From Cytophagales bacterium (GTDB taxonomy: Bacteria > Bacteroidota > Bacteroidia > Cytophagales > Cyclobacteriaceae): a DNA stretch of 64,000 bases. Shown in pieces: positions 6,336-56,984 of this stretch; position 1 is the first letter of the stretch, and the number at the start of each line of letters is the position of its first letter. The notes under the pieces were generated by a model. The model worked only from the letters and a program-made list of their open reading frames with translations, did no database searches and was not told where the DNA came from. The stretch spans positions 27-64,026 of the forward strand of contig JANYHW010000006.1 of NCBI GenBank assembly GCA_025358885.1, read 5' to 3'. The translations under genes were made by a program, and so were the position numbers.

Positions 6336-6337
6336 GC

Positions 6338-6706
6338 CTATTGCTGTTCTGTGGGGGGGATATTCAGGCTTTTTATCAGATCATCCATTCGTTGAGCGTT
6401 CTCCTCTATCTCATCATGGAAGAATGCCAGTTCAGGAACGATCCGCGCCTGGTTCCGTATCCGTGCTCCCAATGCCTTTCGGATTTCCTTTTTGTGCAAG
6501 TCCAGCTTGACCAGAAATCCCTTTTTGTCTTTTACCAGTTGCATGCCGATGTACACCCTGGCGACACTTAAGTCCGGACTTACCCGCACATCCATGATCG
6601 TGATGAATTCATTTCCAAGAAGACCCCGCTGATCGCGTTGAAAGATATCACTGAGTTCTTTTAATATCAGCCTTCCAAACTTTTGCTGTCGCACCGTTCC
6701 ACTCAT
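6338..6706 (-). CDS. rbfA: Ribosome-binding factor A
   Basis: RVSPDLSVARVY and RIVPELAFFHD motifs. Confidence 0.93.
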   Translation of the reverse strand: MSGTVRQQKFGRLILKELSDIFQRDQRGLLGNEFITIMDVRVSPDLSVARVYIGMQLVKDKKGFLVKLDLHKKEIRKALGARIRNQARIVPELAFFHDEIEENAQRMDDLIKSLNIPPTEQQ

Positions 6707-6825
6707 GGAGTAAAGGTAAGAAAGTCGTGGGTTAATCGCGGATATCGCCTGGGGTTGTCTATACTTTTTAGCGCCCGTCAGACCCTTAACAATTTTTTGT
6801 TATTTGCATCAAATATGAATCTTTC

Positions 6826-39845: not shown

Positions 39846-39876
39846 GGCAATTAAAAGTTTAGGTAACAAAAATAAC

Positions 39877-39900
39877 AAAGCCCCTTGAATAAGGGGCTTT
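39877..39900. terminator. Hairpin terminator after gltD
   Basis: Perfect stem AAAGCCCCTT-GAAT-AAGGGGCTTT. Confidence 0.75.
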
Positions 39901-39914
39901 AGTCTATGGTGGCG

Positions 39915-41390
39915 TCAAGGTACGTAGACTAAATTAAGAATTCCTTTCTCTTTGGCCTCCAGGGCGGTTTCCCCTGCCAGAAATTCATCCACGGCACGGG
40001 CAGCCTCTCTTCCATCGCTTATAGCCCATACCACCAGGGACTGACCCCTGCGCATGTCACCTGCTGAGAAGACGCCCTCTATAGAAGTTTGATACTGAAG
40101 ACATTTAACGTTGCCGCGTTCATCACATTCAACTCCGAGCTGACTCAACATGCCATCTTTTTGCGGGTAAAGGAAACCCATGGCCAGCAACACCATGTCG
40201 CAGGGTATTATTTTTTCTGTGCCGGTAATCTCATTTAGACTTAGGGGCTTGCCCGGTTCTGTCGCTTTCCACTCAACCTCAATAACCTTAAGTGCTTTCA
40301 GATTTCCATTTTTATCTCCCAGGAATTCTTTGGTCACAATGCTCCATTGACGTTCACAGCCCTCCTCATGGGAAGTAGAGGTGCGAAGTATCATGGGCCA
40401 GTTCGGCCAGGGCATTGCATCATTTCTTTCGGCAGGTGGCCGGTTCAGGATCTCGATTTGTGTTACAGAAGTTGCTCCTTGACGATTGGAGGTGCCGACG
40501 CAATCAGAACCCGTGTCACCGCCACCCAATACAATCACATTCTTTCCTGCAGCGAGCAGGACATCATCCTGAATATTCTTATTGCCCACTCTTCTGTTTT
40601 GTTGTGTCAGAAAATCCATGGCAAAATGGATACCCTTCAGGTTACGTCCGGGAATGGGGAGATCGCGCGGAATGGTCGAACCTCCACATAACAGTATAGC
40701 ATCAAACTCTTCCTTGAGCAGTGGAGCGGTCAAATTGACTCCCACGTTCACGCTGGTCCTAAATGAAATTCCCTCTTCTTCCATCAGTTTGATTCGGCGA
40801 TCCAGCACTCCCTTGTCTAATTTGAAATCAGGGATACCGTATCTCAACAATCCACCAATCGCATCGTCCCTTTCGAATACAGTGACCAGGTGTCCCGCAT
40901 AATTAAGTTGAGCGGCGGCGGCGAGCCCGGCGGGTCCTGATCCCACGATGGCAACTTTCTTTCCGGTACGCGAGGCGGGAATCCTTGGAACGACCAGTCC
41001 TTTGTCGAAAGCCATTTCTATGATTGACTTTTCGATATATTCAATCGTAACGGCCGGTTTGTTGATGGCCAATACACAAGATGCCTCGCAGGGTGCAGGA
41101 CATATCCGTCCCGTGAACTCGGGAAAGTTGTTTGTAGAAATAAGAATTTCATACGCCAGTTTCCAGTTGCCCTGATAGACGGCATCGTTGAATTCAGGAA
41201 TGTTGTTTCCAAGCGGACAGCCGTGGTGACAAAAGGGAACGCCACAGTCCATGCAACGGGCCGCTTGTTTTATGGTGAGTGCCGCATCTACGCTGCCCTC
41301 CACCTCCTTGTAATCCTGGAGACGTTCGGCAACATCCCGCTTTCGCGGAAGTCCCCTGCCTGTTTCCAAAAATCCTGTAGGCTTGCCCAT
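39915..41390 (-). CDS. gltD: Glutamate synthase small subunit
   Basis: CMDCGVPFC..GCP, GRICPAPCE, GSGPAGL, GGGDTG and GQSLVVWAI motifs. Confidence 0.97.
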   Translation of the reverse strand: MGKPTGFLETGRGLPRKRDVAERLQDYKEVEGSVDAALTIKQAARCMDCGVPFCHHGCPLGNNIPEFNDAVYQGNWKLAYEILISTNNFPEFTGRICPAPCEASCVLAINKPAVTIEYIEKSIIEMAFDKGLVVPRIPASRTGKKVAIVGSGPAGLAAAAQLNYAGHLVTVFERDDAIGGLLRYGIPDFKLDKGVLDRRIKLMEEEGISFRTSVNVGVNLTAPLLKEEFDAILLCGGSTIPRDLPIPGRNLKGIHFAMDFLTQQNRRVGNKNIQDDVLLAAGKNVIVLGGGDTGSDCVGTSNRQGATSVTQIEILNRPPAERNDAMPWPNWPMILRTSTSHEEGCERQWSIVTKEFLGDKNGNLKALKVIEVEWKATEPGKPLSLNEITGTEKIIPCDMVLLAMGFLYPQKDGMLSQLGVECDERGNVKCLQYQTSIEGVFSAGDMRRGQSLVVWAISDGREAARAVDEFLAGETALEAKEKGILNLVYVP

Positions 41391-41393
41391 ACG

Positions 41394-44300
41394 CTATGCC
41401 TTGACGGCAAGTTGTTGATGTTGAAGTTTTCTTTTTCTTAAGACTTCCTTGTATTCCACGGGCATCACCTTCAGGAATTGTGTAAGAACTTTATCCCAGT
41501 TGCGGAGGAGTTGAGAGGCCAGGTCGCTGTGAGTACAGGAGAGATGGTTTTCAATCATGAGGCGCAGCAGTAGAGCATCTTCATCATCCACGATGTCCAG
41601 CAATACCATTTCCAAATTGATATTCTGACCCAAATTCCTGTTTGGATCAAAGACATAGGCGACGCCACCACTCATTCCAGCAGCAAAATTTCTGCCTGTA
41701 TCACCCAGCACGACAACGGTACCTCCGGTCATATATTCGCATCCATGATCTCCCACTCCTTCTACCACTGCCTCAACGCCGGAGTTTCTGACAGCGAATC
41801 GTTCGCCCGCCCGTCCACGGATAAATACTTGACCGGATGTCGCGCCATACAAGGCCACATTTCCTACAATGATATTTTGCGCAGGATCGTAGGTAATTCG
41901 TTTGTCGGGATGCACCACGAGCCGTGCTCCGGAAAGTCCTTTTCCGAAATAGTCGTTGGCATCTCCTTCTAACTCAAAGGTGATTCCTTTCGCGGCAAAT
42001 GCACCAAAGCTTTGGCCGGCAGTTCCGTGAAACTTGAAGTGAACTCCGTTGCCGTGCTGATCTGTTGAAGGACCATACCGTTTAGAAATTTCATTGGAGA
42101 GCATAGCGCCGACAGCGCGGTCTTCATTAGTGATGGAAAAAACACCTTGTACTGACTCTCCATCTTCCAGGAATGGTCTGGCTATTTTGATTAATGTCCG
42201 ATCAAGTACGTGTTCAATACCGTGGTCCTGCTCCTCTTGTCTGAACATTGCGGTATCAAGGCTAATGGGCTCTTTGTATAGTATGGGTGAAAGATCGAGG
42301 TTGTTGAATTTCCATCGGCCATCGTTCTCCATCAATTCGAGATAGTCGCTTTGCCCGACCATCTCATCCACCGTGTGAAAGCCAAGTTCGGCCATGATTT
42401 CACGCAACTCTTCGGCGAGGAAAGTGAAGAGGTTTACTACGTATTCCGGTTTGCCAGTGAAAAGTGCCCTGAGTTCTTTGTTCTGTGTGGCAACTCCTAC
42501 GGGACAAGTGTTTAGGTGGCACTTTCTCATCATGATGCACCCGGAAGTCACGAGCGCCGCGGTAGCTACTCCCCATTCTTCTGCGCCAAGCAGGGCGGCA
42601 ATGGCTAAGTCTCTACCCGTGCGTATTTGCCCGTCGGTTTGAAGCACAACACGGCCACGTAATTTATTTCTTACCAGGGTTTGGTGAGCCTCGGCAAGTC
42701 CAAGTTCCCAGGGCAGTCCGGCATGACGAATGGAACTTAGGGGCGAGGCACCTGTCCCGCCATCATGCCCGGAGATCAAGATCACATCAGCATGCGCTTT
42801 GGCCACGCCAGAAGCGATGGTACCAACGCCTGCTTCTGACACTAGCTTTACACTGATTCGTGCATCGCGATTTGCATTCTTTAAATCAAAAATCAATTGA
42901 GCGAGATCTTCAATGGAATAAATATCGTGATGGGGTGGTGGTGAGATCAGACCAACGCCCGGTGTGGAGTGGCGTACGCGTCCAATCCACTCATCCACTT
43001 TGTGCCCTGGAAGTTGACCGCCCTCGCCAGGCTTGGCGCCCTGGGCCATTTTGATTTGAAGCTCTTTGGCATTGCTGAGATAATAACTTGTTACACCAAA
43101 ACGGCCGGAAGCAACTTGTTTGATGGCAGAGTTCTCCCAATCGCCGTTGGGTTTACGGAGAAACCGCACTTCATCTTCACCCCCCTCACCGCAATTGCTT
43201 TTGCCGCCGATACGATTCATAGCGATGGCCAGTGTGCTGTGCGCCTCATGCGATATCGACCCAAAAGACATAGCACCCGTTGCAAACCTTTTGAAGATTG
43301 ATGTTATTGCCTCAACCTCACTGAGGGGAATAGATTTTCCTTTGCGGAATTTCAAAAGGCTCCGGAGAGTGATGGCCTTTTCACTCTGTTGGTTGATAAG
43401 GGAAGAATATTTCTTAAATAAAGAGTAGTCTTTTGTTTTCGTCGAGTGCTGAAGGAGATGGATGGTTTGAGGATTGAACAAGTGTGCTTCTCCTCTCTGC
43501 CGCCATTGATACACGCCGCCCACTTCCAACTGTGTTGCTCCATTGGTTGTTTTTGGAAAAGCAAGTCTGTGTTTGGCCAATGCTTCCCGGGCAATGTCAT
43601 CGAGTATAAGGCCACCGATTCGCGACACGGTTCCATTGAAATACTGGTCCACCACCGCTTTGCTAATTCCAAGCGCTTCAAAGATTTGCGCGCCATGATA
43701 AGACTGCAGTGTGCTGATCCCCATTTTACTCATGATTTTGAGCAGCTCCCCGGTCATGGCTTTCTTGTAATTGTACATAGCCTGTTCTTCGGTGAGATCT
43801 TCACGAAGAAGGTTTCGCTTCTTCATGTCGAAGATGGTTTGATACACCAAATAGGGATTCACACCGGAGGCACCATACCCGATCAGCGTGGCGAAGTGAT
43901 GCGTTTCCCACACATCGCCGGCCTCCACCAACAGTCCAACTTTGCCCCGAAGTCCTTTGCGGATAAGATCATGGTGAACCGCCGCGACCGCCAGCAATGA
44001 AGGGATCTGCGCATGACCACTGTCAAAACTGCGATCTGAAAGAATGATGATGGTAAACCCGTCCTCAATGGCATCAGTAACGTATTGACATACGCGATTC
44101 AATCCCTTTTCCAGGGAGCCGGGTTCTCCACCAGCCTTGAAATAAGTATAGATTGTTTTGGTCTGTAGGTGCCTGTGATCGATGTAGCGAATCTTTTCCA
44201 TGTCGCTGTTCGAAAGAATAGGGACGGGCAATTCCAGGGTGATGCAATGTTCCGGCGTCTCTTCAAGTAGATTCAATGAGCCACCAACATGGGTTGCCAG

Positions 44301-45926
44301 GGACATCACGAGACGCTCGCGAATTGAATCGATTGGTGGATTCGTGACTTGCGCAAAGAGTTGTTTAAAGTAGCTCGATAAATGCTGGGCCTGGTTGGAC
44401 AATACGGCAAGCGGAATGTCGCTACCCATGGAACCAAGGGCCTCTTTTCCTGTTTCACACATTTGAGCGAGTACAACACGCACGTCCTCGGTGGTATAAC
44501 CAAACGATATCTGGCGTTTAATAAAAGTTCGGGGATCGTACTTATGAAAACTTCCACCCGGTTCTGGCAAATCCTGAAGCCTTACTTTATTTGCCCGCAC
44601 CCATTCGCCATAAGGTTGACGGGTGCAAATGTCCAATTTCAACTCGTCGTCACTGATGATACGGCCTTGGACTAAGTCGACAACAAACATTTTGCCCGGC
44701 TGTAGACGTCCCTTCTTAACGACTTTCGCCGGATCGATATCAAGAACACCAACTTCGGAGGCCATGATTACCCGGTCGTCATCGGTAATAACATAACGGG
44801 AAGGGCGCAAGCCGTTTCGATCCAGGGTGGCGCCAACAATTTTTCCGTCGGTGAAAGTGATAGACGCCGGTCCGTCCCAGGGTTCCATGAGGTTGGCGTG
44901 GTACTCGTAGAAGTCTTTTTTCTCCTGGCCCATGTGCTCGTTGCCATCCCATGCCTCGGGGATGAGCATCATCATGACGTGTGGTAGTGAACGACCCGAG
45001 TGCAGTAACAATTCTATGACGTTGTCAAGGTTTGAGGAGTCGGACTGGGCCGGGTTGCAGATCGGCAGAATCATGTCGAGTTCTTCCCGCGAGAAATATG
45101 TTGACGAAAGGAATGCCTCTTTTGATTTCAACCAGTTAATATTTCCCTGTATGGTATTGATCTCCCCGTTATGTGCGATGAACCGGAAGGGCTGTGAAAG
45201 CCTCCAGGAGGGAAATGTATTTGTAGAAAATCGCGAATGGATGACCGCAATGGCAGAAACCACTTCCTCGTGCTCAAGGTCAGCGAAGTAATGCTTCAGC
45301 TGGCGCGAAGTGAGCATCCCCTTGTAGGCAATTGTCTTATAGGAAAGAGATGAAAAATAGAATTGATTGTTAACCCCCTGCACAGACTCTGTCACGATAC
45401 GGGTGGTGTACTTCCGCAGGATAAACAGTTTGCGCTCAAAGGCATCTGGGTCGGCAATGGATTCGTGGCGTTTAATGAAAATCTGCTCCATTACCGGCTC
45501 GGCACGGAGGGCGGTTTCACCGATTTCATTGTTCCGTGTGGGCAACAAGCGGTATCCCAACAGGGACATTTTCATTTTCTTGATTTGCCGGTTTAGCACG
45601 GTACGGCATTCTTCGCGTGCCTTCGGATCGCGTGGAAAAAAAACAAGACCCACGGCATATTGACCATAGGATGGCAGCTTAATGCCAAGTTTGTTGCATT
45701 CATTCGTGAAGAATTCATGGGGAATCTGAATAAGAATCCCCGCACCGTCGCCTGTATTGGGCTCGCATCCGCATGCGCCGCGGTGACTCATTCGTTCCAG
45801 CATGGTGATGGCATCCATGACCAGTTGGTGCGACTTCCGGGCTTTGATGTTGGCAATGAATCCGACTCCGCAAGAGTCCTTTTCAAAGCTGGGGTGATAC
45901 AGTCCGTGGGTTGGGGTCTCGTTCAC
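41394..45926 (-). CDS. gltB: Glutamate synthase large subunit
   Basis: DSCGVGF (Ntn Cys), HSRFSTNT, QVASGRFGV, CHLNTCPVG and GXGXG repeats; starts at GTG. Confidence 0.98.
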   Translation of the reverse strand: MNETPTHGLYHPSFEKDSCGVGFIANIKARKSHQLVMDAITMLERMSHRGACGCEPNTGDGAGILIQIPHEFFTNECNKLGIKLPSYGQYAVGLVFFPRDPKAREECRTVLNRQIKKMKMSLLGYRLLPTRNNEIGETALRAEPVMEQIFIKRHESIADPDAFERKLFILRKYTTRIVTESVQGVNNQFYFSSLSYKTIAYKGMLTSRQLKHYFADLEHEEVVSAIAVIHSRFSTNTFPSWRLSQPFRFIAHNGEINTIQGNINWLKSKEAFLSSTYFSREELDMILPICNPAQSDSSNLDNVIELLLHSGRSLPHVMMMLIPEAWDGNEHMGQEKKDFYEYHANLMEPWDGPASITFTDGKIVGATLDRNGLRPSRYVITDDDRVIMASEVGVLDIDPAKVVKKGRLQPGKMFVVDLVQGRIISDDELKLDICTRQPYGEWVRANKVRLQDLPEPGGSFHKYDPRTFIKRQISFGYTTEDVRVVLAQMCETGKEALGSMGSDIPLAVLSNQAQHLSSYFKQLFAQVTNPPIDSIRERLVMSLATHVGGSLNLLEETPEHCITLELPVPILSNSDMEKIRYIDHRHLQTKTIYTYFKAGGEPGSLEKGLNRVCQYVTDAIEDGFTIIILSDRSFDSGHAQIPSLLAVAAVHHDLIRKGLRGKVGLLVEAGDVWETHHFATLIGYGASGVNPYLVYQTIFDMKKRNLLREDLTEEQAMYNYKKAMTGELLKIMSKMGISTLQSYHGAQIFEALGISKAVVDQYFNGTVSRIGGLILDDIAREALAKHRLAFPKTTNGATQLEVGGVYQWRQRGEAHLFNPQTIHLLQHSTKTKDYSLFKKYSSLINQQSEKAITLRSLLKFRKGKSIPLSEVEAITSIFKRFATGAMSFGSISHEAHSTLAIAMNRIGGKSNCGEGGEDEVRFLRKPNGDWENSAIKQVASGRFGVTSYYLSNAKELQIKMAQGAKPGEGGQLPGHKVDEWIGRVRHSTPGVGLISPPPHHDIYSIEDLAQLIFDLKNANRDARISVKLVSEAGVGTIASGVAKAHADVILISGHDGGTGASPLSSIRHAGLPWELGLAEAHQTLVRNKLRGRVVLQTDGQIRTGRDLAIAALLGAEEWGVATAALVTSGCIMMRKCHLNTCPVGVATQNKELRALFTGKPEYVVNLFTFLAEELREIMAELGFHTVDEMVGQSDYLELMENDGRWKFNNLDLSPILYKEPISLDTAMFRQEEQDHGIEHVLDRTLIKIARPFLEDGESVQGVFSITNEDRAVGAMLSNEISKRYGPSTDQHGNGVHFKFHGTAGQSFGAFAAKGITFELEGDANDYFGKGLSGARLVVHPDKRITYDPAQNIIVGNVALYGATSGQVFIRGRAGERFAVRNSGVEAVVEGVGDHGCEYMTGGTVVVLGDTGRNFAAGMSGGVAYVFDPNRNLGQNINLEMVLLDIVDDEDALLLRLMIENHLSCTHSDLASQLLRNWDKVLTQFLKVMPVEYKEVLRKRKLQHQQLAVKA

Positions 45927-46302: not shown

Positions 46303-46337
46303 GGGAGTCCTGACCATCTAAGGTGAAGGACCAAGAT

Positions 46338-47696
46338 ATGATTCATCAATACATTGAGTCCAACCAGGACCGCTTCCTGAAAGAGTTATTTGAATTGCTT
46401 CGCATACCCTCCGTCAGCGCTGACAGCAGACACAAAGGTGACGTGCGGAAGGCGGCAGAATTCGTCATGCAAAAATTGAAAGAAGCTGGCGCTGATAATG
46501 TAGCGCTGATGGAGACCAAGGGTCACCCTATTGTGTATGGGGAAAAGATGATTGACCCTCGGAAACCCACCGTGTTGGTGTATGGTCACTATGACGTACA
46601 GCCTCCCGACCCACTGGATCTTTGGAATTCACCCCCCTTTGAACCCACAGTTCGCGATGGCAAGATCTATGCGCGTGGAGCATGCGATGACAAAGGCCAA
46701 ATGTATATGCACATCAAGGCCTTCGAGATCATGATGAAGCATAGCCTGATGAGTTGCAATGTGAAATTCATGATTGAAGGTGAGGAGGAGGTAGGTTCTG
46801 ATAATTTAGGAACGTTCGTGAAAGAGAATAAGTCCAAGCTCAAGGCTGATGTAATTTTGATTTCTGACACGTCATTGATTTCATTGGACCAGCCTTCTAT
46901 CACCGCCGGTTTGCGCGGACTTAGCTACATGGAGGTCGAAGTCACAGGCCCAAACCGCGATCTGCATTCTGGTGTATACGGTGGCGCCGTAGCCAATCCT
47001 GCAAACGTATTGAGTAAAATGATTGCATCCATGCACGACGATCAGGGACGTGTCGCCATTCCTGGTTTTTATGACAAGGTTGCAGAGTTGAGTTCGGCAG
47101 AAAGAAAGACCTTGAATGAAGCGCCCTTTGATTTAAACGAGTATAAGAAAGAACTGGGAATCGATGAAATATCCGGAGAGAAAGGTTACACCACACTAGA
47201 GCGAACCGGCACCAGGCCAACGCTCGATGTGAATGGAATCTGGGGTGGCTATATCGGTGAAGGGGCCAAGACGGTGTTGCCCGCCAATGCGCATGCAAAG
47301 ATCTCGATGAGACTTGTGCCGAACCAGAACCCGCAGGAAATTACAGAGTTATTCACCAAACATTTTCTTTCCATTGCACCGAAATCGGTAAAAGTAAAAG
47401 TAATCGCGCATCATGGAGGTGAGCCAGCTGTAACACCCACGGACTCAAAAGCCTTCAAGGCCGCGATCCAGGCATTCCGGGAAGTGTGGGGGAAATCGCC
47501 CATACCTACCCGCGACGGTGGCAGTATTCCAATCGTGGCCCTTTTCAAAAAGGAACTCGGCCTGGACACTGTGTTGATGGGTTTTGGCCTGGATACAGAT
47601 GCACTCCATTCTCCCAATGAGCACTATGGAATCAAAAACTTTCTCATTGGTATCGAAACCATCGTGGCTTTTCACAAGCATTTTGGAAAATCATAG
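46338..47696 (+). CDS. M20-family dipeptidase (cytosolic non-specific dipeptidase-like)
   Basis: YGHYDVQP, RGACDDKG, EGEEE, RDLHSG and HSPNE; no signal peptide. Confidence 0.93.
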   Translation: MIHQYIESNQDRFLKELFELLRIPSVSADSRHKGDVRKAAEFVMQKLKEAGADNVALMETKGHPIVYGEKMIDPRKPTVLVYGHYDVQPPDPLDLWNSPPFEPTVRDGKIYARGACDDKGQMYMHIKAFEIMMKHSLMSCNVKFMIEGEEEVGSDNLGTFVKENKSKLKADVILISDTSLISLDQPSITAGLRGLSYMEVEVTGPNRDLHSGVYGGAVANPANVLSKMIASMHDDQGRVAIPGFYDKVAELSSAERKTLNEAPFDLNEYKKELGIDEISGEKGYTTLERTGTRPTLDVNGIWGGYIGEGAKTVLPANAHAKISMRLVPNQNPQEITELFTKHFLSIAPKSVKVKVIAHHGGEPAVTPTDSKAFKAAIQAFREVWGKSPIPTRDGGSIPIVALFKKELGLDTVLMGFGLDTDALHSPNEHYGIKNFLIGIETIVAFHKHFGKS

Positions 47697-47809
47697 TCGC
47701 GAATACGAGTTCAAATCTCCATTCATCCACACCATACCCGTATCATCACATTTTATTTCTCGAACGGGACCTGTTTTGATAGATTTCAAATCCATCAAAA
47801 CCCAAACCT

Positions 47810-49501
47810 ATGCTTCGTCAACTTTGTTTTGTCACCGCTATCTTCAGTATTTGGTTGACTGCAAATGCCCAACCAGAAGACGCGCTGAATCCAACGTGGC
47901 GCCAGTTTCATACGGCCACAGAGTCCAACGAATTGTTAAAGGCATGGAACAAGGCGTTCCCTAACCTGACGAAGCTTTACCCGATTGGACAGACGTTGAA
48001 AGGAAGCCCGCTCATGATGATGGAGATCACCAATAAACAAACTGGTGCAGCCGAAGACAAGCCCGCTTATTATTACGATGGGAATATTCATTCGAGTGAA
48101 TTAACTGGAGCCGAAGTGGCCCTTCACTTCGCCTGGTATGTGCTTACCAATTACGACAAGAACTCACGGATCAAGAACCTTCTCGATTCCCGGACGCTAT
48201 ATGTGCGTCCAAAATTTAATCCTGATGGAGCCGATATCGCCCTGACAACTCCGAATGCATTGCGCAGTACGCCTCGTCCATACGATGAAGACATGGATGG
48301 CCTGTTGGATGAAGATCCGGGCAATGACCTGAATAAAGATGGCATCATTGCCGATATGCGGGTAAAGAACCCAACGGGCATGTGGAAGATCAGTGCGAAA
48401 GATGCCAGACTGATGGTGAAACGCGACGCGAATGAAACAGAGGGAACATTTTATGATGTCTACAATGAAGGAGTGGACGATGACGGAGATGGAAAATTCA
48501 ATGAAGATGGTATTGGTGGCATCGATATGAATAGAAATTTCCCCAGGGAATGGGGCATGGAGTTTGAGCAAAATGGGGCCGGACCTTTTCCATTGTCAGA
48601 GCCTGAGACAAGGGCGACAGTGGAATTTATCAATTCCCACCGCAACATCACAGGATTATTTCATGGACATACCGCTGCCGGGTATTTGTTTCGGTTGCCG
48701 TCGACATCTTCCTGGGACAATTTTGGGATGGAAGATCAGGCGTTGATATTGGAATTGTCGGACATGTATGCCACGACGACAGGACAAAAAGTAGTGCCGA
48801 GCTACAGCAATCCCCGTCTTCACCGGCATGGTACTCTCATCAGTTGGGCGTATTGGGACTATGGCGTCGTAGGATTTGTTCCCGAATTCTGGGGCGCTTT
48901 TCAGGCGGATGCGAATAAAGATGGAAGGGTCTCCGATGAAGAGTTGATCAAATGGAACGATGAAAAACTTGAAGGTAAATATTATCTGAACTGGCAGCCC
49001 TTCACCCATCCTCAATTGGGTGCCGTTGAATTAGGTGGATGGAACAGTCGGTTTATTCGCCAGAACCCTCCTCCGGCATTTCTCAAGGGTGAGATTGAAA
49101 TGTATGTCCCCTGGATGCTTTGGCTTGCAGAAACAAGTCCGCAGGTGGTGATCAGGGATGCATCGGTGAAGTTTGTTGAAAAAGGGAAGGTCGCGAAGGT
49201 AACAGTGATGGTGGAGAATAAAGGCTATCTCCCTACCAACATTACCAAGAGGTCTATCGAAGCCCAATTCGCTTCGCCTGTCAGGGCTGCCATAGAATTG
49301 TCGGATGCGGAGTTGTCTTCAGGCAATACCCGCACTGATCTTGGTCATCTTACTGGCAGGAGGGACAACGAACTTGCCACCTCAAGAAAGGAAGTCGAGT
49401 ACATGATCAGGATCACCGGACCCAATCCCAAAGCCGTCATCACCATCATATCAGAAAAGGGAGGTACGGTGAAGAGAGAGTTGGACTTAAAGGGCAAGTG
49501 A
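47810..49501 (+). CDS. Secreted M14 metallocarboxypeptidase, paralog 1 (catalytic residues present)
   Basis: Signal peptide; NIHSSE, DMNRNF, FHGH, VPEF; Dx[DN]xDG loops; C-terminal Ig-like domain. Confidence 0.9.
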   Translation: MLRQLCFVTAIFSIWLTANAQPEDALNPTWRQFHTATESNELLKAWNKAFPNLTKLYPIGQTLKGSPLMMMEITNKQTGAAEDKPAYYYDGNIHSSELTGAEVALHFAWYVLTNYDKNSRIKNLLDSRTLYVRPKFNPDGADIALTTPNALRSTPRPYDEDMDGLLDEDPGNDLNKDGIIADMRVKNPTGMWKISAKDARLMVKRDANETEGTFYDVYNEGVDDDGDGKFNEDGIGGIDMNRNFPREWGMEFEQNGAGPFPLSEPETRATVEFINSHRNITGLFHGHTAAGYLFRLPSTSSWDNFGMEDQALILELSDMYATTTGQKVVPSYSNPRLHRHGTLISWAYWDYGVVGFVPEFWGAFQADANKDGRVSDEELIKWNDEKLEGKYYLNWQPFTHPQLGAVELGGWNSRFIRQNPPPAFLKGEIEMYVPWMLWLAETSPQVVIRDASVKFVEKGKVAKVTVMVENKGYLPTNITKRSIEAQFASPVRAAIELSDAELSSGNTRTDLGHLTGRRDNELATSRKEVEYMIRITGPNPKAVITIISEKGGTVKRELDLKGK

Positions 49502-49594
49502 CTCGAGAGCTCTTATATCTTCTTTCAACCGTTCATCTCAATCGTTGGTGAACCAGAACTTTCATTTTAGAATCTTTCGCCATATCCCAGCATT

Positions 49595-51238
49595 ATGATA
49601 AAACCATTTTCATTACTAACAACCTTCACCCTTGTAGTAAGCATCGGGTTCGGACAGGGTTTCAGCGACCAAAGCCGCATGGCAACTCGACTGAAAGCGC
49701 TGGAATCTGCAAACCCTTCCCTGACCAGGTTGCAATCCCTTGCCAAAACAGTGGGAGGCAAGGATGTCTGGGTTTTGGAGATCGGGGCTGGAGACAGGGT
49801 TAATCATTCCGGGATTGCCGTCATCGGTGGTGTGGAAGGCTCCCACCTGATGGGACAGGAACTGGCTATTGGCTTCGCTGAGAAACTCCTGGCCAATGCC
49901 CAAAATGACAGCATCAAAAATATCCTCAACACCACGGCATTTTACGTGTTTCCGAACATGAGTCCCGATGCGTCAGAGCAATACTTTGCTCAACCTAAAT
50001 ATGAGCGGAGTGCGAACGCAAATCCCACCGATGATGACCGTGATGGCAAGACCAATGAGGACCCTTTTGAAGACTTGAACAACGACGGATTAATTTCCTG
50101 GGTTATGGTAGAAGACCCGACAGGAAAATGGAAAACCCATCCTGCCGATAGCCGTATCATGGTGATGGCCAGCCTTGAAAAAGGAGAACGGGGAAAGTAT
50201 ATTCTTATTAGTGAAGGAACGGACAACGACAAAGACGGAAAATTCAACGAGGATGGGGATGGTGGGATTCACTTCAACAAGAGTCTGACCTTTGATCCTC
50301 CTTATTTTGTGCCTGGTGCAGGAGAACATCCTGTTTCAGAATTGGAAAACCGTGCCCTGTTGGATTATCTGTATGAACGTTTCAATGTGTTTGCGGTGAT
50401 CTCATTTGGACCATCCAATAACCTGTCGGACCCCTGGAAATTTGATAAGCTTAAGAATGCCGGTCGTGTGCCCATGGGGATTCTGGAGAATGATGCCAGG
50501 CAAAACAAAATAGCAAGCGATCTATATAAGAAATATGTTACTCTTAAGGATGCGCCTGTTGGCCCAACGTCAAAAGGCGACTTATCGCAATGGGCCTACT
50601 TCCATTATGGACGTCAAAGTTTTAGCACCCCCGGTTGGTGGCCACCGAAATTTGAAATTCCAAAAGACACCGCCCAGGCGAAGAAGTACAAAACAAATGA
50701 GGACAAGAATACAGATGTCGATTTCTTACGCTGGGCTGAGAAAGAAAACCTGGATGTATTTACAGCATGGCAGAAATTCAATCACCCGGATTATCCCGGC
50801 AAGAACGCTGAAGTGGGTGGCTTCAAACCATTTGTAAAAACCAACCCACCCTTTAAGATGGTCGACAAACTGGTTGAGGAGCACACGAAATTTATAGTTT
50901 CATTGGCGGCCAAAAGGCCTGACATAGATTTGATCAATGTCAAAACGGAGCCACTTGAAAACGGTGTAAGCCGCATTACCCTGACGATTCAAAACAAGGG
51001 CCTTTTTCCCGCGCTCACGGAAATAGGGAAGAACAATATCTTCAACAAACTGGTGAAAATTAGCTTGACCTCGGCAAAGGACCAGTCCATTGTAAGTGGT
51101 AACAAGATTACCCTGTTACCCAACCTGGAAGCAGGCGAAACAAAAGAAATGAGTTGGTTGGTGAAAGGAAAAGGAAAACTCACCATCGAAGCGGGGGCTC
51201 CGCAAGCAGGAGTGAAGAAAATAGATATCAACCTTTAA
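49595..51238 (+). CDS. Secreted M14-fold protein, paralog 2 (catalytic motifs degenerate)
   Basis: Same architecture, but VEGSH, HFNKSL, SFGPS and STPGW occupy the HxxE, NR, H and E positions. Confidence 0.8.
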   Translation: MIKPFSLLTTFTLVVSIGFGQGFSDQSRMATRLKALESANPSLTRLQSLAKTVGGKDVWVLEIGAGDRVNHSGIAVIGGVEGSHLMGQELAIGFAEKLLANAQNDSIKNILNTTAFYVFPNMSPDASEQYFAQPKYERSANANPTDDDRDGKTNEDPFEDLNNDGLISWVMVEDPTGKWKTHPADSRIMVMASLEKGERGKYILISEGTDNDKDGKFNEDGDGGIHFNKSLTFDPPYFVPGAGEHPVSELENRALLDYLYERFNVFAVISFGPSNNLSDPWKFDKLKNAGRVPMGILENDARQNKIASDLYKKYVTLKDAPVGPTSKGDLSQWAYFHYGRQSFSTPGWWPPKFEIPKDTAQAKKYKTNEDKNTDVDFLRWAEKENLDVFTAWQKFNHPDYPGKNAEVGGFKPFVKTNPPFKMVDKLVEEHTKFIVSLAAKRPDIDLINVKTEPLENGVSRITLTIQNKGLFPALTEIGKNNIFNKLVKISLTSAKDQSIVSGNKITLLPNLEAGETKEMSWLVKGKGKLTIEAGAPQAGVKKIDINL

Positions 51239-51249
51239 CCGGAGAGAAC

Positions 51250-52980
51250 ATGAGAACATTGACTAACATACTCTTCTTTCTTTTGTGCTCCACGACCATC
51301 CTCGCACAGGATGCGGGTGGTGTTTTCCGGGCTGCAGGTAGCCCGGAGAATCCGAAAGTTCCTATTTCCTGGAACCGTTACTACAACCATGCCGGGATCA
51401 CGGACATCTGCAAGAAATTGTCGGCATCCTACCCTGATCTTGTTAAACTCAGCTCTATTGGAAAGAGCTTTCAGGGTCGTGAGATGTGGGTACTTACCGT
51501 TACCGATTTCACTAAGGGCAAGCCTGAAGAAAAACCAGGGTTTTATATTGATGGCAACATTCATTCCAATGAAATTCAGGGTACGGAGATGGCGTTGTAT
51601 ACCGCATGGTATTTAGTAGAAACTTTTAAAGATGTCTCCTTTGTCAAGGAGCTGCTGAATGACAAAGTCTTCTACATTGTCCCTACCATCAATCCCGATG
51701 CACGGGACCATTATATGAAGGAACCCAATTCGCCTAACAGCCCAAGGTCTGGAGTAATACCTGTGGACAACGATCGGGATGGGCTTGTTAACGAAGACGG
51801 CTTCAAAGACCTTGATGGTGATGGCAATATCACGCAGATGATCCGCAAAAATTCCAATGGGAGGTTTAAGAAGGACCCGAACGATCTGCGAAAACTTATG
51901 CAGGTGAAAGTGGATGAAGTGGGTGAGTACGAGATATTGGGATCTGAAGGAATTGACAATGATGGGGATGGCCGGGTGAGCGAAGATGGTACCGGCTATT
52001 ATGACCCCAACCGCGACTGGGCCTGGAAATGGCAACCCAATTATATTCAGAACGGTGCGTATAAGTATCCATTCTCCCTGCCTGAAAACAGAAATGTGCG
52101 CGATTTCGTGATGGCCCATCCCAACATTGCAGGTGCTCAAAGTTTTCACAACTCAGGAGGCATGCTGCTTCGCGGCCCGGGGGCGGAAGAAGATATAGGG
52201 ACCTATAATGCTGATGATGTCCGCATTTATGATGCCATTGGAAAAAAGGGAGAACAATTACTTCCCGGCTATCGCTACCTCGTGGTATACAAGGATCTTT
52301 ATACTGCCTGGGGTGGAGAGTTAGATTGGTTTTATGGAGGAAGAGGAGCCTACACTTTTTCAAATGAATTATTCAACTCCTATCAATACTTTCATGTCAA
52401 AGGTGATGGCCAGGGTTTTGGCCAGAATGAAGCATATGATTTTGATAAATCGCTTTTGTTTGGTGATGCGGTGGTGAATTGGAAAGAATTTAACCATCCT
52501 CAATTCGGAAAAATAGAGATCGGCGGGCCAAAGAAAAATTTTACCCGGGCCGATCCAGGTTTCTTATTGGAAAGCGATGCGCATCGCAATATGGCGTTCT
52601 GCATCTACCATGCTTACAGTATGCCCAAATTGGAAATAGATGAAATTGCAGAGAGAGATCTTGGAGGCGGATTGACTGAAGTAACTGTCGTTGTGGCCAA
52701 CAAGCGAATGATTCCCACGCATTCAAGCCAAGACTTAAAATATCGGATTGAGCGGGCTGACTACATCACGCTTGAAGGGGCAAAGGTTGTCGCTGGACTC
52801 ATTGTGGAGAATCGCGACTTGAATCTTATCCGCGAACAGAAGAACAATCCAGCTCAAATGGAGGTTGAAAATATTCCAGGAATGGGGGCTGTCACCATTC
52901 GATGGATCATCAATGGAGGAAAGGGTTATTCAATCAAGGTGAATAGCAAAAAAGGAGGGGTGACGAGTAAATCTAAATAA
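51250..52980 (+). CDS. Secreted M14 metallocarboxypeptidase, paralog 3 (catalytic residues present)
   Basis: Start at MRTLTN (signal peptide); NIHSNE, DPNRDW, SFHN, SNEL; Dx[DN]xDG loops. Confidence 0.9.
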   Translation: MRTLTNILFFLLCSTTILAQDAGGVFRAAGSPENPKVPISWNRYYNHAGITDICKKLSASYPDLVKLSSIGKSFQGREMWVLTVTDFTKGKPEEKPGFYIDGNIHSNEIQGTEMALYTAWYLVETFKDVSFVKELLNDKVFYIVPTINPDARDHYMKEPNSPNSPRSGVIPVDNDRDGLVNEDGFKDLDGDGNITQMIRKNSNGRFKKDPNDLRKLMQVKVDEVGEYEILGSEGIDNDGDGRVSEDGTGYYDPNRDWAWKWQPNYIQNGAYKYPFSLPENRNVRDFVMAHPNIAGAQSFHNSGGMLLRGPGAEEDIGTYNADDVRIYDAIGKKGEQLLPGYRYLVVYKDLYTAWGGELDWFYGGRGAYTFSNELFNSYQYFHVKGDGQGFGQNEAYDFDKSLLFGDAVVNWKEFNHPQFGKIEIGGPKKNFTRADPGFLLESDAHRNMAFCIYHAYSMPKLEIDEIAERDLGGGLTEVTVVVANKRMIPTHSSQDLKYRIERADYITLEGAKVVAGLIVENRDLNLIREQKNNPAQMEVENIPGMGAVTIRWIINGGKGYSIKVNSKKGGVTSKSK

Positions 52981-53002: not shown

Positions 53003-53033
53003 AAAAAGCCCCGGTTGTCAATCGGGGCTTTTT
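53003..53033. terminator. Bidirectional intrinsic terminator
   Basis: AAAAAGCCCCG-GTTGTCAAT-CGGGGCTTTTT between convergent genes. Confidence 0.85.
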
Positions 53034-53042
53034 GTTTGCTTT

Positions 53043-56000
53043 TCACATGAGATTGAGCAGATAAGAATTCCAGTCAAAAAATTGTTTTTGCTTGATTCCG
53101 CCGCCGCCGGCTTCTCCTTTCTTAAACTCCTCTTCGGACATCACCTTGATGGGCTCAAACAATTTGTCTGAAGTAAGTGTCGAATTGATCTTCTTCAATT
53201 TGTCATTCTTGAGTTGTTCAAATTTCACATCTGCTTTTTTCAACTCATCATCAAGGCTGCCCACGCGGTCGACCTGAGCTGCGCCGGGCTTCCCCGGGTA
53301 GCTGGTGACCTGACCATAAAGTTGTGAGATTTGTTCGGCAAGCTTCTCTTCGGTGTTGATATAAAAGTCTCCACCACGGAACACCAATGCATTGTTTTGA
53401 TCCTCCACTTCTTTAATAAATGGATTAACCAGTTTACCCATTTTTGGATTTTTCTCCACGACTACTTTGGCCTGCTTTGCCATACCATCTTGTGCCGAAT
53501 AGAGGTAAGCCAGATGTTCTGTTTGCTTGTACAAACGCATGGTTGTCTCTTGTTGAACCTTCCTGTCATCGGCGGTATACGGTGATTGATCGGGATACTT
53601 GAGTGTAAAGCTGGTCAGGTATTCCTCCTTGCCCTTGATGACTTTCACTTTGTATGTTCCTGCAGGAAGGTTGGGGCCGAAAAGTGTTCCAAACATAGCC
53701 TGTGGATTTTCTGATGGAGCAGCTTTAGGTTTTTCAAGGGTGGCCGTCATTTCCACCACATTAATCCCGGCGCTTTTTCCGGCAGGGAGTTCACGAATTA
53801 GCTGATCATTCTGATCATAGACTTCAATGGTCATCTTGCCGAAAGTATGACGCTTGTTCATGAAGTACACAATCTTTGCGACCGAGCTGGGATTCTCACC
53901 GGTGTAATTCCCGTCTCCACCAAACCAATTTCCGCCGGCACCCGGATCATTCAATACCGTTGGCCTTGTTTCAAAGAAGTGAATGGACTTTGCCATCACT
54001 TCCGGCGTGAGCTGTCGCAAGGGTGAAATGTCATCGATGATGATGAGTGCCCTTCCATGGGTAGCCAGCACTATGGCATCTTCCTTGGGATGAATAGCAA
54101 TGTCATGCACAGCTACTTTGGGGACATTGTTTTCAAATCGCGACCATTTCTTGCCACCATCCACCGTGATGTACAATCCAAATTCAGTACCTGCATATAG
54201 CAGTGTTGGATTAACACGATCTTCACGGATCACCCACACATGGCCTTCAACTTCAGGGGTTACAATTGAAGTCCAGGTCTTGCCAAGATCGCTAGTCCTG
54301 TAGATGTATGGTTTCATGTCACCATTGCGGTGGTTGTCAAATGAAACATAGGCGACATTGCGATCAAAGTGACTTAAATCGATGGATGAGCACCAGTTTC
54401 CTGCAGGCAAACCCACAATGTTTTTTGTTGCGTTGACCCAGGTTCCACCCTGATTCTCCGTCACCTGAAGAAAGCCATCATCCGTTCCAGCCCAAACGAC
54501 TTTGTCATCTTTAGGCGATTCAGCCGCATAATAGACAGTTGTATTATTTTCTGCAGAGGAATTGTCGATTGACAGACCGCCAGTGAGGCTTTGGCGCTGC
54601 CGTTTTGGATCGTTGCTGGTCAGGTCAGGAGAGATTCTCTTCCAGGTGTCGCCACGATCTTCAGACATAAACAGAAATTGCGAACCCGCATAGATTCTAT
54701 CGGGTTTGTTCGGACTTTGAATGATGGGTGTATTCCAGTTGAACCGGAGTTTGGGACCGCCCTTCTCCGGGTAAGGTTGGATATCTTTAGAGATCCCGGT
54801 TTTCTTGTTGTAACGCCCCATATGTCCTCCCTGGGATTCAGCATAGACTATATCCTTGTCTGTAGGGTGGGGAGAAGACCAGAAACCGTCACCGCCATAG
54901 GTTACATTCCAGTCTTTGTTGGAGACGCCACCGGGTCTTTGGGAAGGGCCAAACCAGGAGCCGTTATCCTGTAATCCTCCATACACATTATAAGGAGTTT
55001 CATTGTCCAGAGCCACATGATAGAATTGACCCACGGGAAGGTTTCCCCACATCTTGAAAGTATATCCCTGATCAAGGGACTCATATACACCTCCATCGGT
55101 ACCCAACAAAATATGGTTTGAGTTATGGGGATCAATCCAGGCGGCGTGCACATCTGAGTGAACGCTTTGAATGGGTCGGAATTTTTTTCCGCCATCGGTG
55201 CTGATGATGGGAGTGAATGCGCATTTGACAATGATGCTGTCATAATTTGGATCCACGGTTAACCGAGAGAAATAAAAAGGACGCACACCATTATTAAAGT
55301 CACTGTTCACAAGCTTCCAGTTCGCGCCGGCATCAACTGATTTATACATTCCTTTGACGTCTTTCGCCTCCACACTCGCATACAACACATTTGCTTTTGA
55401 TGGAGCAGCGGCGATGCCGATTCGGCCCAAAGTAGTTTTAGGGAGACCATTGTGAATTTTATTCCAGGTCGCACCACCATCCGTACTTTTATACAATCCA
55501 CTTGTTCCGGTGAAACCGGAATCAAAGAAATCCGGATATCTTCTATGACTCCACATGGCGGCGTACAGCACATCAGGATTCTTAGGATCAATTTCCAAAT
55601 CTGCGCAACCCGTGTTTTCGTCGATGTACAGAATTTTATTCCAGGTCTTGCCACCATCTGTTGTCTTGAAAACACCACGTTCAGCATTCGCATTCCACAA
55701 GTGTCCCTGGGCAGCAACGAACACCACATCACCATTCTTCGGGTGGATGATGATATCGCTGATGTGTTCAGAGTCTTTTAGTCCCATGAATTGCCATGAT
55801 GAACCGCCGTTAACGGATTTATACAATCCCGTACCTACGCCCACGCTGTTCCGCACCCAGGGCTCACCGGTACCCACCCATACCGTATCAGGATGGTTTT
55901 GATCCAGGGTTACTTTTCCGATGGACATAGTGTAATCATCAAAAATCGGTCGGAAGTTTGCACCGGCACTAACCGATTTCCATACACCACCACCCGCGGA

Positions 56001-56189
56001 GCCCACGTATATAATAGTCGGTTTCTTGTTTACAACTTCGATGTCGGCAATGCGACCACTCATAGTAGCCGGGCCGATATGGCGCGCACGAAGGCCACCC
56101 AAAAGTGCTTTTCCTGACATCTCTGTCTGTGCATAAGTGATTTGCACAAGGCACAGGCATGCCAATGTGCAGAGTAATTTGTTTTTCAT
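53043..56189 (-). CDS. Large secreted VPS10/BNR (Asp-box) beta-propeller protein
   Basis: SGRIAD, many KSxDGGxTW Asp-boxes, GGLQDNG, ATHGR; helical C-terminus. Confidence 0.88.
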   Translation of the reverse strand: MKNKLLCTLACLCLVQITYAQTEMSGKALLGGLRARHIGPATMSGRIADIEVVNKKPTIIYVGSAGGGVWKSVSAGANFRPIFDDYTMSIGKVTLDQNHPDTVWVGTGEPWVRNSVGVGTGLYKSVNGGSSWQFMGLKDSEHISDIIIHPKNGDVVFVAAQGHLWNANAERGVFKTTDGGKTWNKILYIDENTGCADLEIDPKNPDVLYAAMWSHRRYPDFFDSGFTGTSGLYKSTDGGATWNKIHNGLPKTTLGRIGIAAAPSKANVLYASVEAKDVKGMYKSVDAGANWKLVNSDFNNGVRPFYFSRLTVDPNYDSIIVKCAFTPIISTDGGKKFRPIQSVHSDVHAAWIDPHNSNHILLGTDGGVYESLDQGYTFKMWGNLPVGQFYHVALDNETPYNVYGGLQDNGSWFGPSQRPGGVSNKDWNVTYGGDGFWSSPHPTDKDIVYAESQGGHMGRYNKKTGISKDIQPYPEKGGPKLRFNWNTPIIQSPNKPDRIYAGSQFLFMSEDRGDTWKRISPDLTSNDPKRQRQSLTGGLSIDNSSAENNTTVYYAAESPKDDKVVWAGTDDGFLQVTENQGGTWVNATKNIVGLPAGNWCSSIDLSHFDRNVAYVSFDNHRNGDMKPYIYRTSDLGKTWTSIVTPEVEGHVWVIREDRVNPTLLYAGTEFGLYITVDGGKKWSRFENNVPKVAVHDIAIHPKEDAIVLATHGRALIIIDDISPLRQLTPEVMAKSIHFFETRPTVLNDPGAGGNWFGGDGNYTGENPSSVAKIVYFMNKRHTFGKMTIEVYDQNDQLIRELPAGKSAGINVVEMTATLEKPKAAPSENPQAMFGTLFGPNLPAGTYKVKVIKGKEEYLTSFTLKYPDQSPYTADDRKVQQETTMRLYKQTEHLAYLYSAQDGMAKQAKVVVEKNPKMGKLVNPFIKEVEDQNNALVFRGGDFYINTEEKLAEQISQLYGQVTSYPGKPGAAQVDRVGSLDDELKKADVKFEQLKNDKLKKINSTLTSDKLFEPIKVMSEEEFKKGEAGGGGIKQKQFFDWNSYLLNLM

Positions 56190-56252: not shown

Positions 56253-56984
56253 CTATTTCTTTGGGAAGGCAAAGATGCTGTCATCCATAATATCATTGAT
56301 TGTAATCTTTTGAATGGTAATCTTTGACGTTTGCCCGTTTACTTTTTGCTCAATTGAGAAAGGAAACATGAGTCCGCTAACATCCTGGTAGTCGCTCAGG
56401 TATGCCTTTACTTCCGTTCCTTTTTGAGGGCCAGACCGCACAAAGGATGCCTGCATAATGGGCACGAAATTTTCGGAATCAAAATAATGAATCTCGGTGA
56501 TATCTTCTTTGGGATTGTTCTTATTGCGCACAAGTTTAATTTTATAACACTTCACGCCATCAACTTCTTCCGTGCCCTCAAGGGTAACTTCATGGCCTTT
56601 CTTTTTGTAGTCAATAAAGTCATCTTCAAATTCTTCGTCCTTAACATCTTTGGCCTGTTCGTCATCCAGTTTTACCGGGTCTTTTCCTCCCTGAAGCGGG
56701 TTGAGCATCCAGGCATCCTTTCCATCGTACACATTCAAAATGAGTTCCGTACCCTGAACGTTTACGACTGTTTTTTGCTTGTTGGGTGCCTTTTCATATA
56801 TAGTCATCGGAAATTCCTGTCCCATGAAGGCCTTGCCTTCCATCGTTTTGGATTTCAAAGCTTTCCATTTGTCTAGCCCGCCTGTTGCAGTAAAATACTT
56901 AGCCAGAATTTCGTCTGCTGTTTGTGCCTGGGCGGCCACAAAACATATCAGCGCAAGGGCTGTCAACACGGATTTCAATTTCAT
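56253..56984 (-). CDS. Secreted LolA-like/outer-membrane lipoprotein-sorting family protein
   Basis: Signal peptide, TADEILAKY..GG, YDGKDAW, SDYQDVSGLMFPF and DDSIFAFP. Confidence 0.7.
   Translation of the reverse strand: MKLKSVLTALALICFVAAQAQTADEILAKYFTATGGLDKWKALKSKTMEGKAFMGQEFPMTIYEKAPNKQKTVVNVQGTELILNVYDGKDAWMLNPLQGGKDPVKLDDEQAKDVKDEEFEDDFIDYKKKGHEVTLEGTEEVDGVKCYKIKLVRNKNNPKEDITEIHYFDSENFVPIMQASFVRSGPQKGTEVKAYLSDYQDVSGLMFPFSIEQKVNGQTSKITIQKITINDIMDDSIFAFPKK

Follow-up and report, generated by a model that had tools for sequence, protein, structure and literature searches.

Three co-oriented genes for M14 carboxypeptidase homologs, here termed P1, P2 and P3, lie on the forward strand of a 64,000-nucleotide stretch from a Cytophagales bacterium (assembly GCA_025358885.1, contig JANYHW010000006.1, positions 27 to 64,026), referred to below as the window and numbered from its first nucleotide. 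P1 (47810-49501, 563 aa) is an active-type carboxypeptidase of a separate orthogroup; P2 (49595-51238, 547 aa) is, by its residues, a catalytically dead paralog, or pseudopeptidase; and P3 (51250-52980, 576 aa counted from its ATG) is an active-type carboxypeptidase and the conserved partner of P2. A prior interpretation of the DNA made without database searches (the sequence-only reading) had proposed that all three form a heteromeric peptidase, or a processing relay, with the dead paralog as scaffold. Our comparisons retain the heteromeric peptidase with a dead subunit for P2 and P3, whose adjacency across phyla, short spacer, ancient loss of one active site and natural fusion all point that way, and abandon the three-gene complex or relay. 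We put at roughly 60% the probability that P2 and P3 are, respectively, the dead and the active subunit of a two-subunit M14 carboxypeptidase that is secreted, with P1 a stand-alone paralog and the triad no three-part machine. Gene order, residue states, fold and the fusion are observed, whereas a physical P2-P3 complex and a role in trimming peptides are inferred. The most valuable outcome is this redefinition of the unit as P2-P3, supported by the fusion, with the triad reduced to a local arrangement of little importance in itself.

Conservation and natural fusion of the P2-P3 pair

To define the occurrence of the pair, one genome per species was surveyed with P2 as the query, giving 80 loci from Cyclobacteriaceae, Flammeovirgaceae, Roseivirgaceae, Spirosomataceae, Chitinophagaceae, Sphingobacteriaceae, Flavobacteriaceae, Rikenellaceae, other Bacteroidales and Balneolaceae. 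A P3 ortholog occurs directly 3' of the P2 ortholog, on the same strand, in 76 of these; the remaining four reach a contig edge within 340 bp, so that the pair is intact at every informative locus (76/76). The intergenic distance is short, with a median of 11 bp and less than 50 bp in 70 of 74 ortholog pairs, and the 11-bp spacer of the window (51239-51249, plus strand) is consistent with translational coupling. All 80 loci hold the pair without P1, no third M14 gene was found within 8 kb of any of them, and clustering of the flanking open reading frames (ORFs) of the P2-P3 loci revealed no other conserved neighbour. The sequence-only reading had named a predominance of single homologs as evidence against a complex; P1 orthologs do occur separately, and P2 and P3 remain together throughout the informative loci.

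The association extends to remote homologs. Three distant P2-like representatives (33-39% identity) were examined, one of them from a Planctomycetes metagenome-assembled genome (MAG). In each case the profile hidden Markov model (HMM) of the P3 family gives the highest score to the next gene, which begins 3 bp away in one locus, 164 bp away in another and overlaps by 16 bp in the third. HxNE is retained in all three of these genes, as are NRD and TNEL(W/F) in those that are complete. The P3-type gene of one such locus (L106:6253-8077) is split into overlapping ORFs at 6253-7227 and 7169-8077, which is a frameshift or an assembly error.

A natural fusion of the two types is encoded on a 495-kb contig of a Phycisphaeraceae MAG (MBX3355142.1, 1235 aa; L104:6001-9708; GCA_019636735.1, JAHBWY010000003.1). 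The protein consists of a signal-like N-terminus, a dead P2-type half, a Pro/Ala-rich linker and a P3-type half devoid of a second signal peptide, the order of the halves being that of the P2 and P3 genes. With the P2-family HMM the N-terminal half reaches 175+59 bits, vs about 88 (first stretch) with each of the other two models; with the P3-family HMM the C-terminal half, which has HANE, NRN, FHNMGG and TNELW intact, reaches 536 bits vs 162 and 269. The linker is followed by AWNRYY, part of a strongly conserved N-terminal motif of the P3 family (FRAAGSPxNPKVxxxWNRYY) that in the window is encoded at 51325-51384 (plus strand), directly after the signal peptide and before the M14 domain of P3. 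When two proteins encoded apart in other genomes occur fused, this is classically taken as a sign that they associate physically or are tightly linked in function.

Catalytic residues and architecture of the three paralogs

Catalytic positions are numbered after bovine CPA. Both P1 and P3 retain the zinc ligands His69/Glu72/His196 (H94/E97/H287 in P1, H105/E108/H300 in P3) and the general base Glu270 (E359 and E373), as the sequence-only reading had stated. In P1, where the first two ligands form HSSE at aa 94-97, each of H94, E97, R152, N241, R242, H287 and E359 is invariant in 119/119 family members; in P3, with HSNE at aa 105-108, the residues H105, E108, R166, N254, R255, H300, Y351 and E373 are conserved in 75 orthologs. 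The counterparts of Asn144 and Arg145, which with Arg127 and Tyr248 anchor the carboxylate and carbonyl of the substrate, are N241/R242 in P1 and N254/R255 in P3. The putative Arg127 equivalents (R152, R166 and, in P2, R138) were derived by alignment to the WRKNR motif of CPT. The counterpart of Tyr248 is Y351 in P3 and probably Y332 in P1, across a 4-residue insertion; P2 has no Tyr there. In the classical rule for CPA and CPB, residue 255 is tied to the preference for the C-terminal residue of the substrate. By hand alignment to bovine CPA this position is L358 in P3 and I344 in P1, both hydrophobic as in CPA, which weakly suggests that both enzymes prefer hydrophobic C-terminal residues and therefore gives no hint of a relay with differing specificities. 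Immediately after the His196 equivalent of P3, aa 302-317 (52153-52200) comprise GGMLLRGPGAEED, the first ten residues of which are at least 95% conserved in the P3 family; the segment has a predicted local distance difference test score (pLDDT) below 50 in the AlphaFold2 (AF2) monomer model, and may correspond to a flexible loop of the active site or to a region that becomes ordered only when a partner is bound.

P2 has replaced these residues with others: E81 for His69, H84 for Glu72, K229 for Arg145, G272 for His196 and P346 for Glu270. Its E81-G-S-H84 (49835-49846, plus strand) stands in place of the zinc-binding HxxE with the acidic residue and the histidine swapped, an exchange that phmmer alignments to CPM, CPD and CPN bear out. 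The replacements are themselves conserved. Among 81 P2 orthologs the His69 site is E/D in 78, the Glu72 site H/Y in 79, the His196 site G/S in 80 and the Glu270 site P in all 81, and two new motifs, a near-invariant TPGWW and NNL, have appeared. The statement in the sequence-only reading that P2 keeps no catalytic residue in place applies to the zinc ligands and the general base and needs qualifying for the remainder, as the Asn144 equivalent N228 (78/81), a basic K/R229 at position 145 (73/81) and probably the Arg127 equivalent R138 (73/81) are kept. In active M14 enzymes Asn144, Arg145 and Arg127 hold the C-terminal carboxylate of the substrate, and their partial retention makes a role of P2 in binding substrate C-termini plausible.

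Loss of the active site characterizes a large population of sequences. When 1.84 billion cluster representatives were searched without a profile, 651 matches were obtained at E <= 1e-30, with P1- and P3-type families included. Among the best 150 of the 651 (28-53% identical), 140 were aligned at near-full length, and not one of these 140 has two or more of the four key residues; N144 persists in 106 of them and R/K145 in 112. Relative to orthologs at 74-77% identity, P2 shows a nonsynonymous divergence (dN) of 0.16, reported alone since synonymous divergence (dS) is saturated. Because the replacement residues are conserved and dN is 0.16 at saturated dS, P2 appears to be a maintained pseudoenzyme of a large and old family and not a decaying gene. 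Failing on both zinc ligands and general base, it is to be classed as a non-peptidase homolog of M14, and the names that databases attach to its family ('M14 family metallopeptidase', 'peptidase', 'Zinc carboxypeptidase') are contradicted by the residue analysis.

All three proteins score above the gathering cut-off of 21.6 bits for PF00246 Peptidase_M14 (P1 140.3, P2 64.4, P3 134.1), the match of P2 spanning only profile positions 4-181, and NCBIfam has no family model for any of them. Their pairwise identity is about 31% and each belongs to its own widely distributed orthogroup, which makes the duplication an old one; indels shared among the three families were uninformative. Several further features described in the sequence-only reading hold up: the three co-oriented M14 genes with gaps of 93 and 11 bp (from the ORFs and the PF00246 scores), the strong divergence that argues against recent duplication, and the shared architecture. 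The common build comprises a signal-like hydrophobic N-terminus, an M14 domain whose profile match begins at aa 32-51, and some 95 residues of acidic insertion separating NPD(G/A) from the N-R motif, with an all-beta C-terminus in the AF2 models of P2 and P3. The insertion occupies aa ~143-238 in P1 (48236-48523), aa ~128-226 in P2 (49976-50272) and aa ~153-251 in P3 (51706-52002), all on the plus strand. Its DxDxDG..ED motifs are invariant among the three proteins by alignment and conserved within each family (EGxDNDKDGKFNED is near-invariant across that of P2), and suggest calcium binding. The C-terminal all-beta domains are encoded at 50924-51235 (P2, aa 444-547, pLDDT about 90-95) and 52630-52977 (P3, aa 461-576), plus strand; Pfam has no model above threshold for either the insertion or the C-terminal domain.

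The AF2 models, built from family alignments, have pLDDT 81 and a predicted template modelling score (pTM) of 0.85 for P3, and pLDDT 87 and pTM 0.87 for P2. Each displays an N-terminal helix corresponding to the signal peptide, an alpha/beta M14 domain, the insertion as a small beta subdomain and the all-beta C-terminal domain. In Foldseek comparisons with the PDB, the catalytic domains match carboxypeptidase T/A at a template modelling (TM) score of about 0.75 normalised to the target; CPN, CPD-II and CPM align over ~560 columns, C-terminal domain included, but with query-normalised TM of only 0.36-0.39 and a root-mean-square deviation above 10 A, and no solved structure in the PDB spans the whole of P2 or P3. 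The build may be described as M14B-like (N/E type).

Signal peptides, predicted at aa 1-20 in P1 and P2 and aa 1-19 in P3, were read by eye and are followed by Gln (P1, 47810-47872, A|Q; P2, 49595-49657, G|Q; P3, 51250-51309, A|Q), as in most orthologs; an N-terminal Gln after signal peptidase I cleavage is a habit of Bacteroidota. Marks of surface lipoproteins or of type IX secretion system (T9SS) cargo were absent, with no lipobox Cys at the cleavage sites and no Pfam match to PF18962 Por_Secre_tail. Given these A|Q and G|Q junctions and the absence of both a lipobox and a T9SS C-terminal domain, export of P1, P2 and P3 to the periplasm appears likely.

A variable peptidase slot and its transcription signals

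P1 has a different distribution from that of the pair. Its relatives are 62-66% identical in Gemmatimonadales, and orthologs with neither P2 nor P3 nearby occur on three contigs, from Cyclobacteriaceae (L081, 617 kb), Gemmatimonadales (L088) and a metagenome (L102, 163 kb). A metagenome scan for P1 contexts gave only nine loci, most of them short. No other case of P1 beside P2-P3 was found among the 80 P2-seeded loci, about 13 distinct P1 loci and the three distant pairs.

The nearest relatives reveal how the triad may have arisen. The gene preceding P1 in the window encodes an M20 dipeptidase (46323-47696, plus strand; PF01546/PF07687; NCBIfam NF006053, 599 bits) that has no signal-like N-terminus, is 87-89% identical in L084, L086, L089 and L091, and anchors a slot in which relatives hold P1, P2-P3 or DUF885-P2-P3. 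L084-L087, with P1 78-83% identical, have the order MacB(-) M20 P1, BNR(-) LolA-like(-) DsbD M23, and no P2-P3. L089 and L090 (P2 77%, P3 84% identical) have GltB(-) MacB(-) M20 DUF885 P2 P3 DsbD M23, and no P1; L091 and L092 have M20 P2 P3, again lacking P1, and L094 has DUF885 P2 P3. The order in the window, GltB(-) M20 P1 P2 P3 BNR(-) LolA-like(-) DsbD M23 patatin, is the union of these layouts. Because relatives carry P1, P2-P3 or DUF885-P2-P3 at the same syntenic site, the slot after M20 appears to gain and lose peptidase genes, and the triad to be one outcome of this, a lineage-specific juxtaposition. In two relatives DUF885 lies directly 5' of P2 (L089:5210-6910; L094:2-283), and in L094 its last 4 nt are shared with the beginning of P2.

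The signals around the three genes are compatible with a single transcription unit. A promoter-like box, TAGATTTC (47780-47787, plus strand), lies 22 nt 5' of the P1 ATG and matches at 7/8 positions TAnnTTTG, the Bacteroidota -7 promoter box consensus; it is a putative functional promoter. It sits within the spacer following M20 (47697-47809), which is homologous in relatives whether P1 or P2 comes next (L086:6889-7000; L091:2120-2223) and contains CATCATCACATTT and GATAGATTT, the latter a 7/8 match to the -7 box. This conserved spacer may contain a promoter or regulatory element common to whichever peptidase genes (P1, DUF885, P2-P3) occupy the slot. The 93-bp P1-P2 spacer (49502-49594, plus strand), the 5' part of which is homologous to the DUF885-P2 spacer of L089, has neither a terminator-like hairpin nor a TAnnTTTG box. 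Between P3 and the convergent downstream gene lies the strong terminator already recognized in the sequence-only reading, a hairpin at 53003-53033 with a 14-bp stem (6 G-C pairs) flanked by an A-run and a T-run, which can terminate both convergent genes; in L086, where P2-P3 is absent, a comparable hairpin follows P1. Given the box at 47780, the terminator at 53003 and no hairpin or -7-type box in either spacer, P1, P2 and P3 are probably cotranscribed in this genome. A sigma-70 promoter scan gave 10 sites vs 11.7 in shuffled sequences, no excess, with a model that does not apply to Bacteroidota. Searches for sequencing runs containing the window returned no RNA runs, only DNA runs from sediment metagenomes.

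An alternative start of P3 at TTG 51154, 96 nt 5' of the ATG and overlapping P2 by 85 nt, gains no support from ortholog N-termini. The 32 additional residues it would supply (MVGERKRKTHHRSGG..., 51154-51249) are not signal-like, and the ortholog N-termini examined start signal-like; the extension is most likely untranslated.

Among the surrounding genes, a secreted BNR/sortilin-Vps10-type repeat protein of 1048 aa (53043-56189, minus strand) and a LolA-like protein (56253-56984, minus strand) are convergent to P3; their homologs are directly 3' of P1 in L084-L087 and are absent from L089, where DsbD comes after P3. Upstream, the opposite strand (38460-45926) carries housekeeping genes, namely class II fumarase (38460-39845), a glutamate synthase small subunit-like gene (39915-41390) and the GltB large subunit (41394-45926). 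A MacB/FtsX gene that stands between GltB and M20 in relatives is missing from the window.

Alternative readings and comparison with known systems

If P2 and P3 form a two-subunit enzyme, P3 would be its catalytic subunit, a Sec-exported zinc carboxypeptidase, most likely periplasmic, of M14B-like build. P2 would be translated just ahead of P3 from the same mRNA, exported separately, and paired with P3 in the periplasm, most likely 1:1, as a non-catalytic subunit contributing substrate binding, gating or stability. With its carboxylate anchors and no metal site, P2 may bind the C-termini of peptides or help to determine how the cleft of P3 is reached. The two would descend from a homodimeric ancestor through duplication and subsequent loss of one active site, leaving a pseudo-symmetric pair, and P1 would be an independent active paralog. 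In this genome P1 has the M20 dipeptidase on one side and the pair on the other, at a site that holds different genes in close relatives. That the pair in close relatives has DUF885 and an M20 dipeptidase of cytoplasmic type as neighbours is in keeping with a general part in the breakdown of peptides, and does not prove it. A bolder version of this scheme, which we entertain only tentatively and think somewhat doubtful, makes P2-P3 the first heteromeric M14 carboxypeptidase, an obligate dead/live heterodimer widespread in Bacteroidota and reaching Planctomycetota, in which the dead half, with its anchor for the C-terminal carboxylate retained, would capture or gate substrate and one zinc site would serve two clefts.

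Several points weigh against the two-subunit reading. Only one fusion is known, and it comes from a single MAG and a cluster without other members; adjacency with fusion suggests physical association and does not prove it; the survey was seeded with P2, and P3-type genes lacking P2 would therefore escape it. The window locus, moreover, as the union of two types found in relatives, could preserve a triad ancestral within a small clade, in which case some weak functional link of the pair to P1 could exist.

Among other explanations, one regards P2 as coexpressed with P3 and independent of it, either as a binding protein for peptides or their C-termini or as a decoy for carboxypeptidase inhibitors. 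The signal peptide of its own and the conserved cleft remnants (N228, K/R229, R138 and TPGWW) would suit a ligand-binding protein, and eukaryotic M14 pseudoenzymes such as AEBP1 and CPXM1/2 serve as binding proteins (PMC11266112); however, close physical or stoichiometric coupling is indicated by the P2-like::P3-like fusion, by the strict order of the genes and by their very short spacing, and we regard independence as unlikely, if still deserving attention. A function of the module on peptidoglycan stem peptides, in the manner of MpaA or Csd4, rather than on nutrient peptides is improbable. It draws on the JGI label 'murein tripeptide amidase MpaA' borne by some P1 homologs, an M23 Csd3-like gene ~6 kb downstream in the window and a PBP4-type S13 peptidase near the fusion gene; but MpaA is here a generic COG designation, both sequence and fold are matched best by carboxypeptidases T, A, D, M and N rather than by M14C or Csd4, and the neighbours that recur beside the pair are the M20 dipeptidase and DUF885, cell-wall genes not being conserved there.

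The assembly of P1, P2 and P3 into one heteromeric complex or ordered relay, with P2 as scaffold for two active subunits, has become very improbable. Co-orientation, a sole promoter-like box 5' of P1, uninterrupted spacers ending at a strong terminator and an architecture common to all three speak for it, but it is largely refuted by synteny: the arrangement recurs nowhere among the P2-seeded loci, P1 loci and distant pairs examined, the nearest relatives hold either P1 or P2-P3 at the same syntenic site, and P1 orthologs of Gemmatimonadales and other Cyclobacteriaceae lack the pair. Least credible of all is that P2 remains an enzyme whose swapped E/D..H, potential metal ligands both (E/D 78/81, H/Y 79/81), bind metal with another residue for a different reaction, given that the third ligand is now Gly/Ser, the general base is Pro in 81/81, and the swapped positions vary too widely over the 140 diverse representatives (D, E, Q or S at the first; H, D, Y, Q or R at the second) to fit a maintained metal site.

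Should the P2-P3 heterodimer be real, hundreds of clusters now named 'M14 family metallopeptidase' that cannot be peptidases would require re-annotation, and the pair would offer a simple two-gene system for understanding how a duplicated homodimer becomes a catalytic plus non-catalytic pair. The genes are common in protein-degrading Bacteroidota of sediment, soil and marine settings, and the module may matter for peptide turnover there.

Among known M14 enzymes, those of subfamily M14B (CPD domain II, CPM and the CPN catalytic chain) furnish the best PDB sequence matches for P1 and P2 (1h8l, 1uwy, 2nsm). They appear to resemble the window proteins in having no long N-terminal pro-domain and a catalytic domain followed by an all-beta C-terminal domain, and P1 and P3 share with them HxxE, NR, H and E. 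The window proteins differ in being bacterial, in the ~95-aa acidic DxDxDG-rich insertion between NPDG and NRN, and in identities to solved structures of only 10-20%, with query-normalised TM about 0.4. Carboxypeptidase T/A (M14A) is the best fold match for the catalytic domain of P3; unlike the window proteins, M14A enzymes have neither the C-terminal beta-sandwich nor the acidic insertion, and those of eukaryotes have a pro-segment.

P2 itself is comparable to known M14 pseudopeptidases (CPD domain III, AEBP1/ACLP, CPXM1, CPXM2 and yeast Ecm14), which keep the M14 fold with catalytic residues replaced and have non-catalytic roles; CPD in particular carries active and inactive M14 units in tandem, as does the Phycisphaeraceae fusion. 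These are all eukaryotic, however, M14 pseudoenzymes having so far been described from eukaryotes alone, in which they work as extracellular binding proteins, and none is described as a subunit of an active paralog, the part proposed here for P2. Most of them keep His69 and Glu72 (CPD-III has Ala72) and have lost other residues (PMC11266112), whereas P2 has lost both and carries the swapped E..H. That 2024 review of metallopeptidase pseudoenzymes lists M14 pseudoenzymes from eukaryotes only, with no bacterial one (PMC11266112). The literature searched contained no account of a dead/live M14 pair from bacteria, consistent with the remark of the sequence-only reading that no characterised system has this layout.

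A parallel in principle comes from M16, for which heterodimers of dead and live paralogs are exemplified in that review, including the bacterial M16B pairs of Maruyama et al. 2011 (cited in PMC11266112). In M16B pairs and in mitochondrial MPP alpha/beta, neighbouring paralogous genes, only one of which carries the zinc motif, encode a heterodimer, the same logic as proposed for P2-P3. M16 belongs to a different clan and fold (HxxEH) and its heterodimers have been shown by experiment, whereas that of P2-P3 is proposed. At the gene level P2-P3 shows this pattern, with adjacent co-oriented paralogs, one devoid of a metal site, at 76/76 informative loci and in 3/3 distant pairs, and joined in one fusion. 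If P2-P3 is a true heterodimer, the dead/live principle known for M16 but not for M14 would extend to a second metallopeptidase clan.

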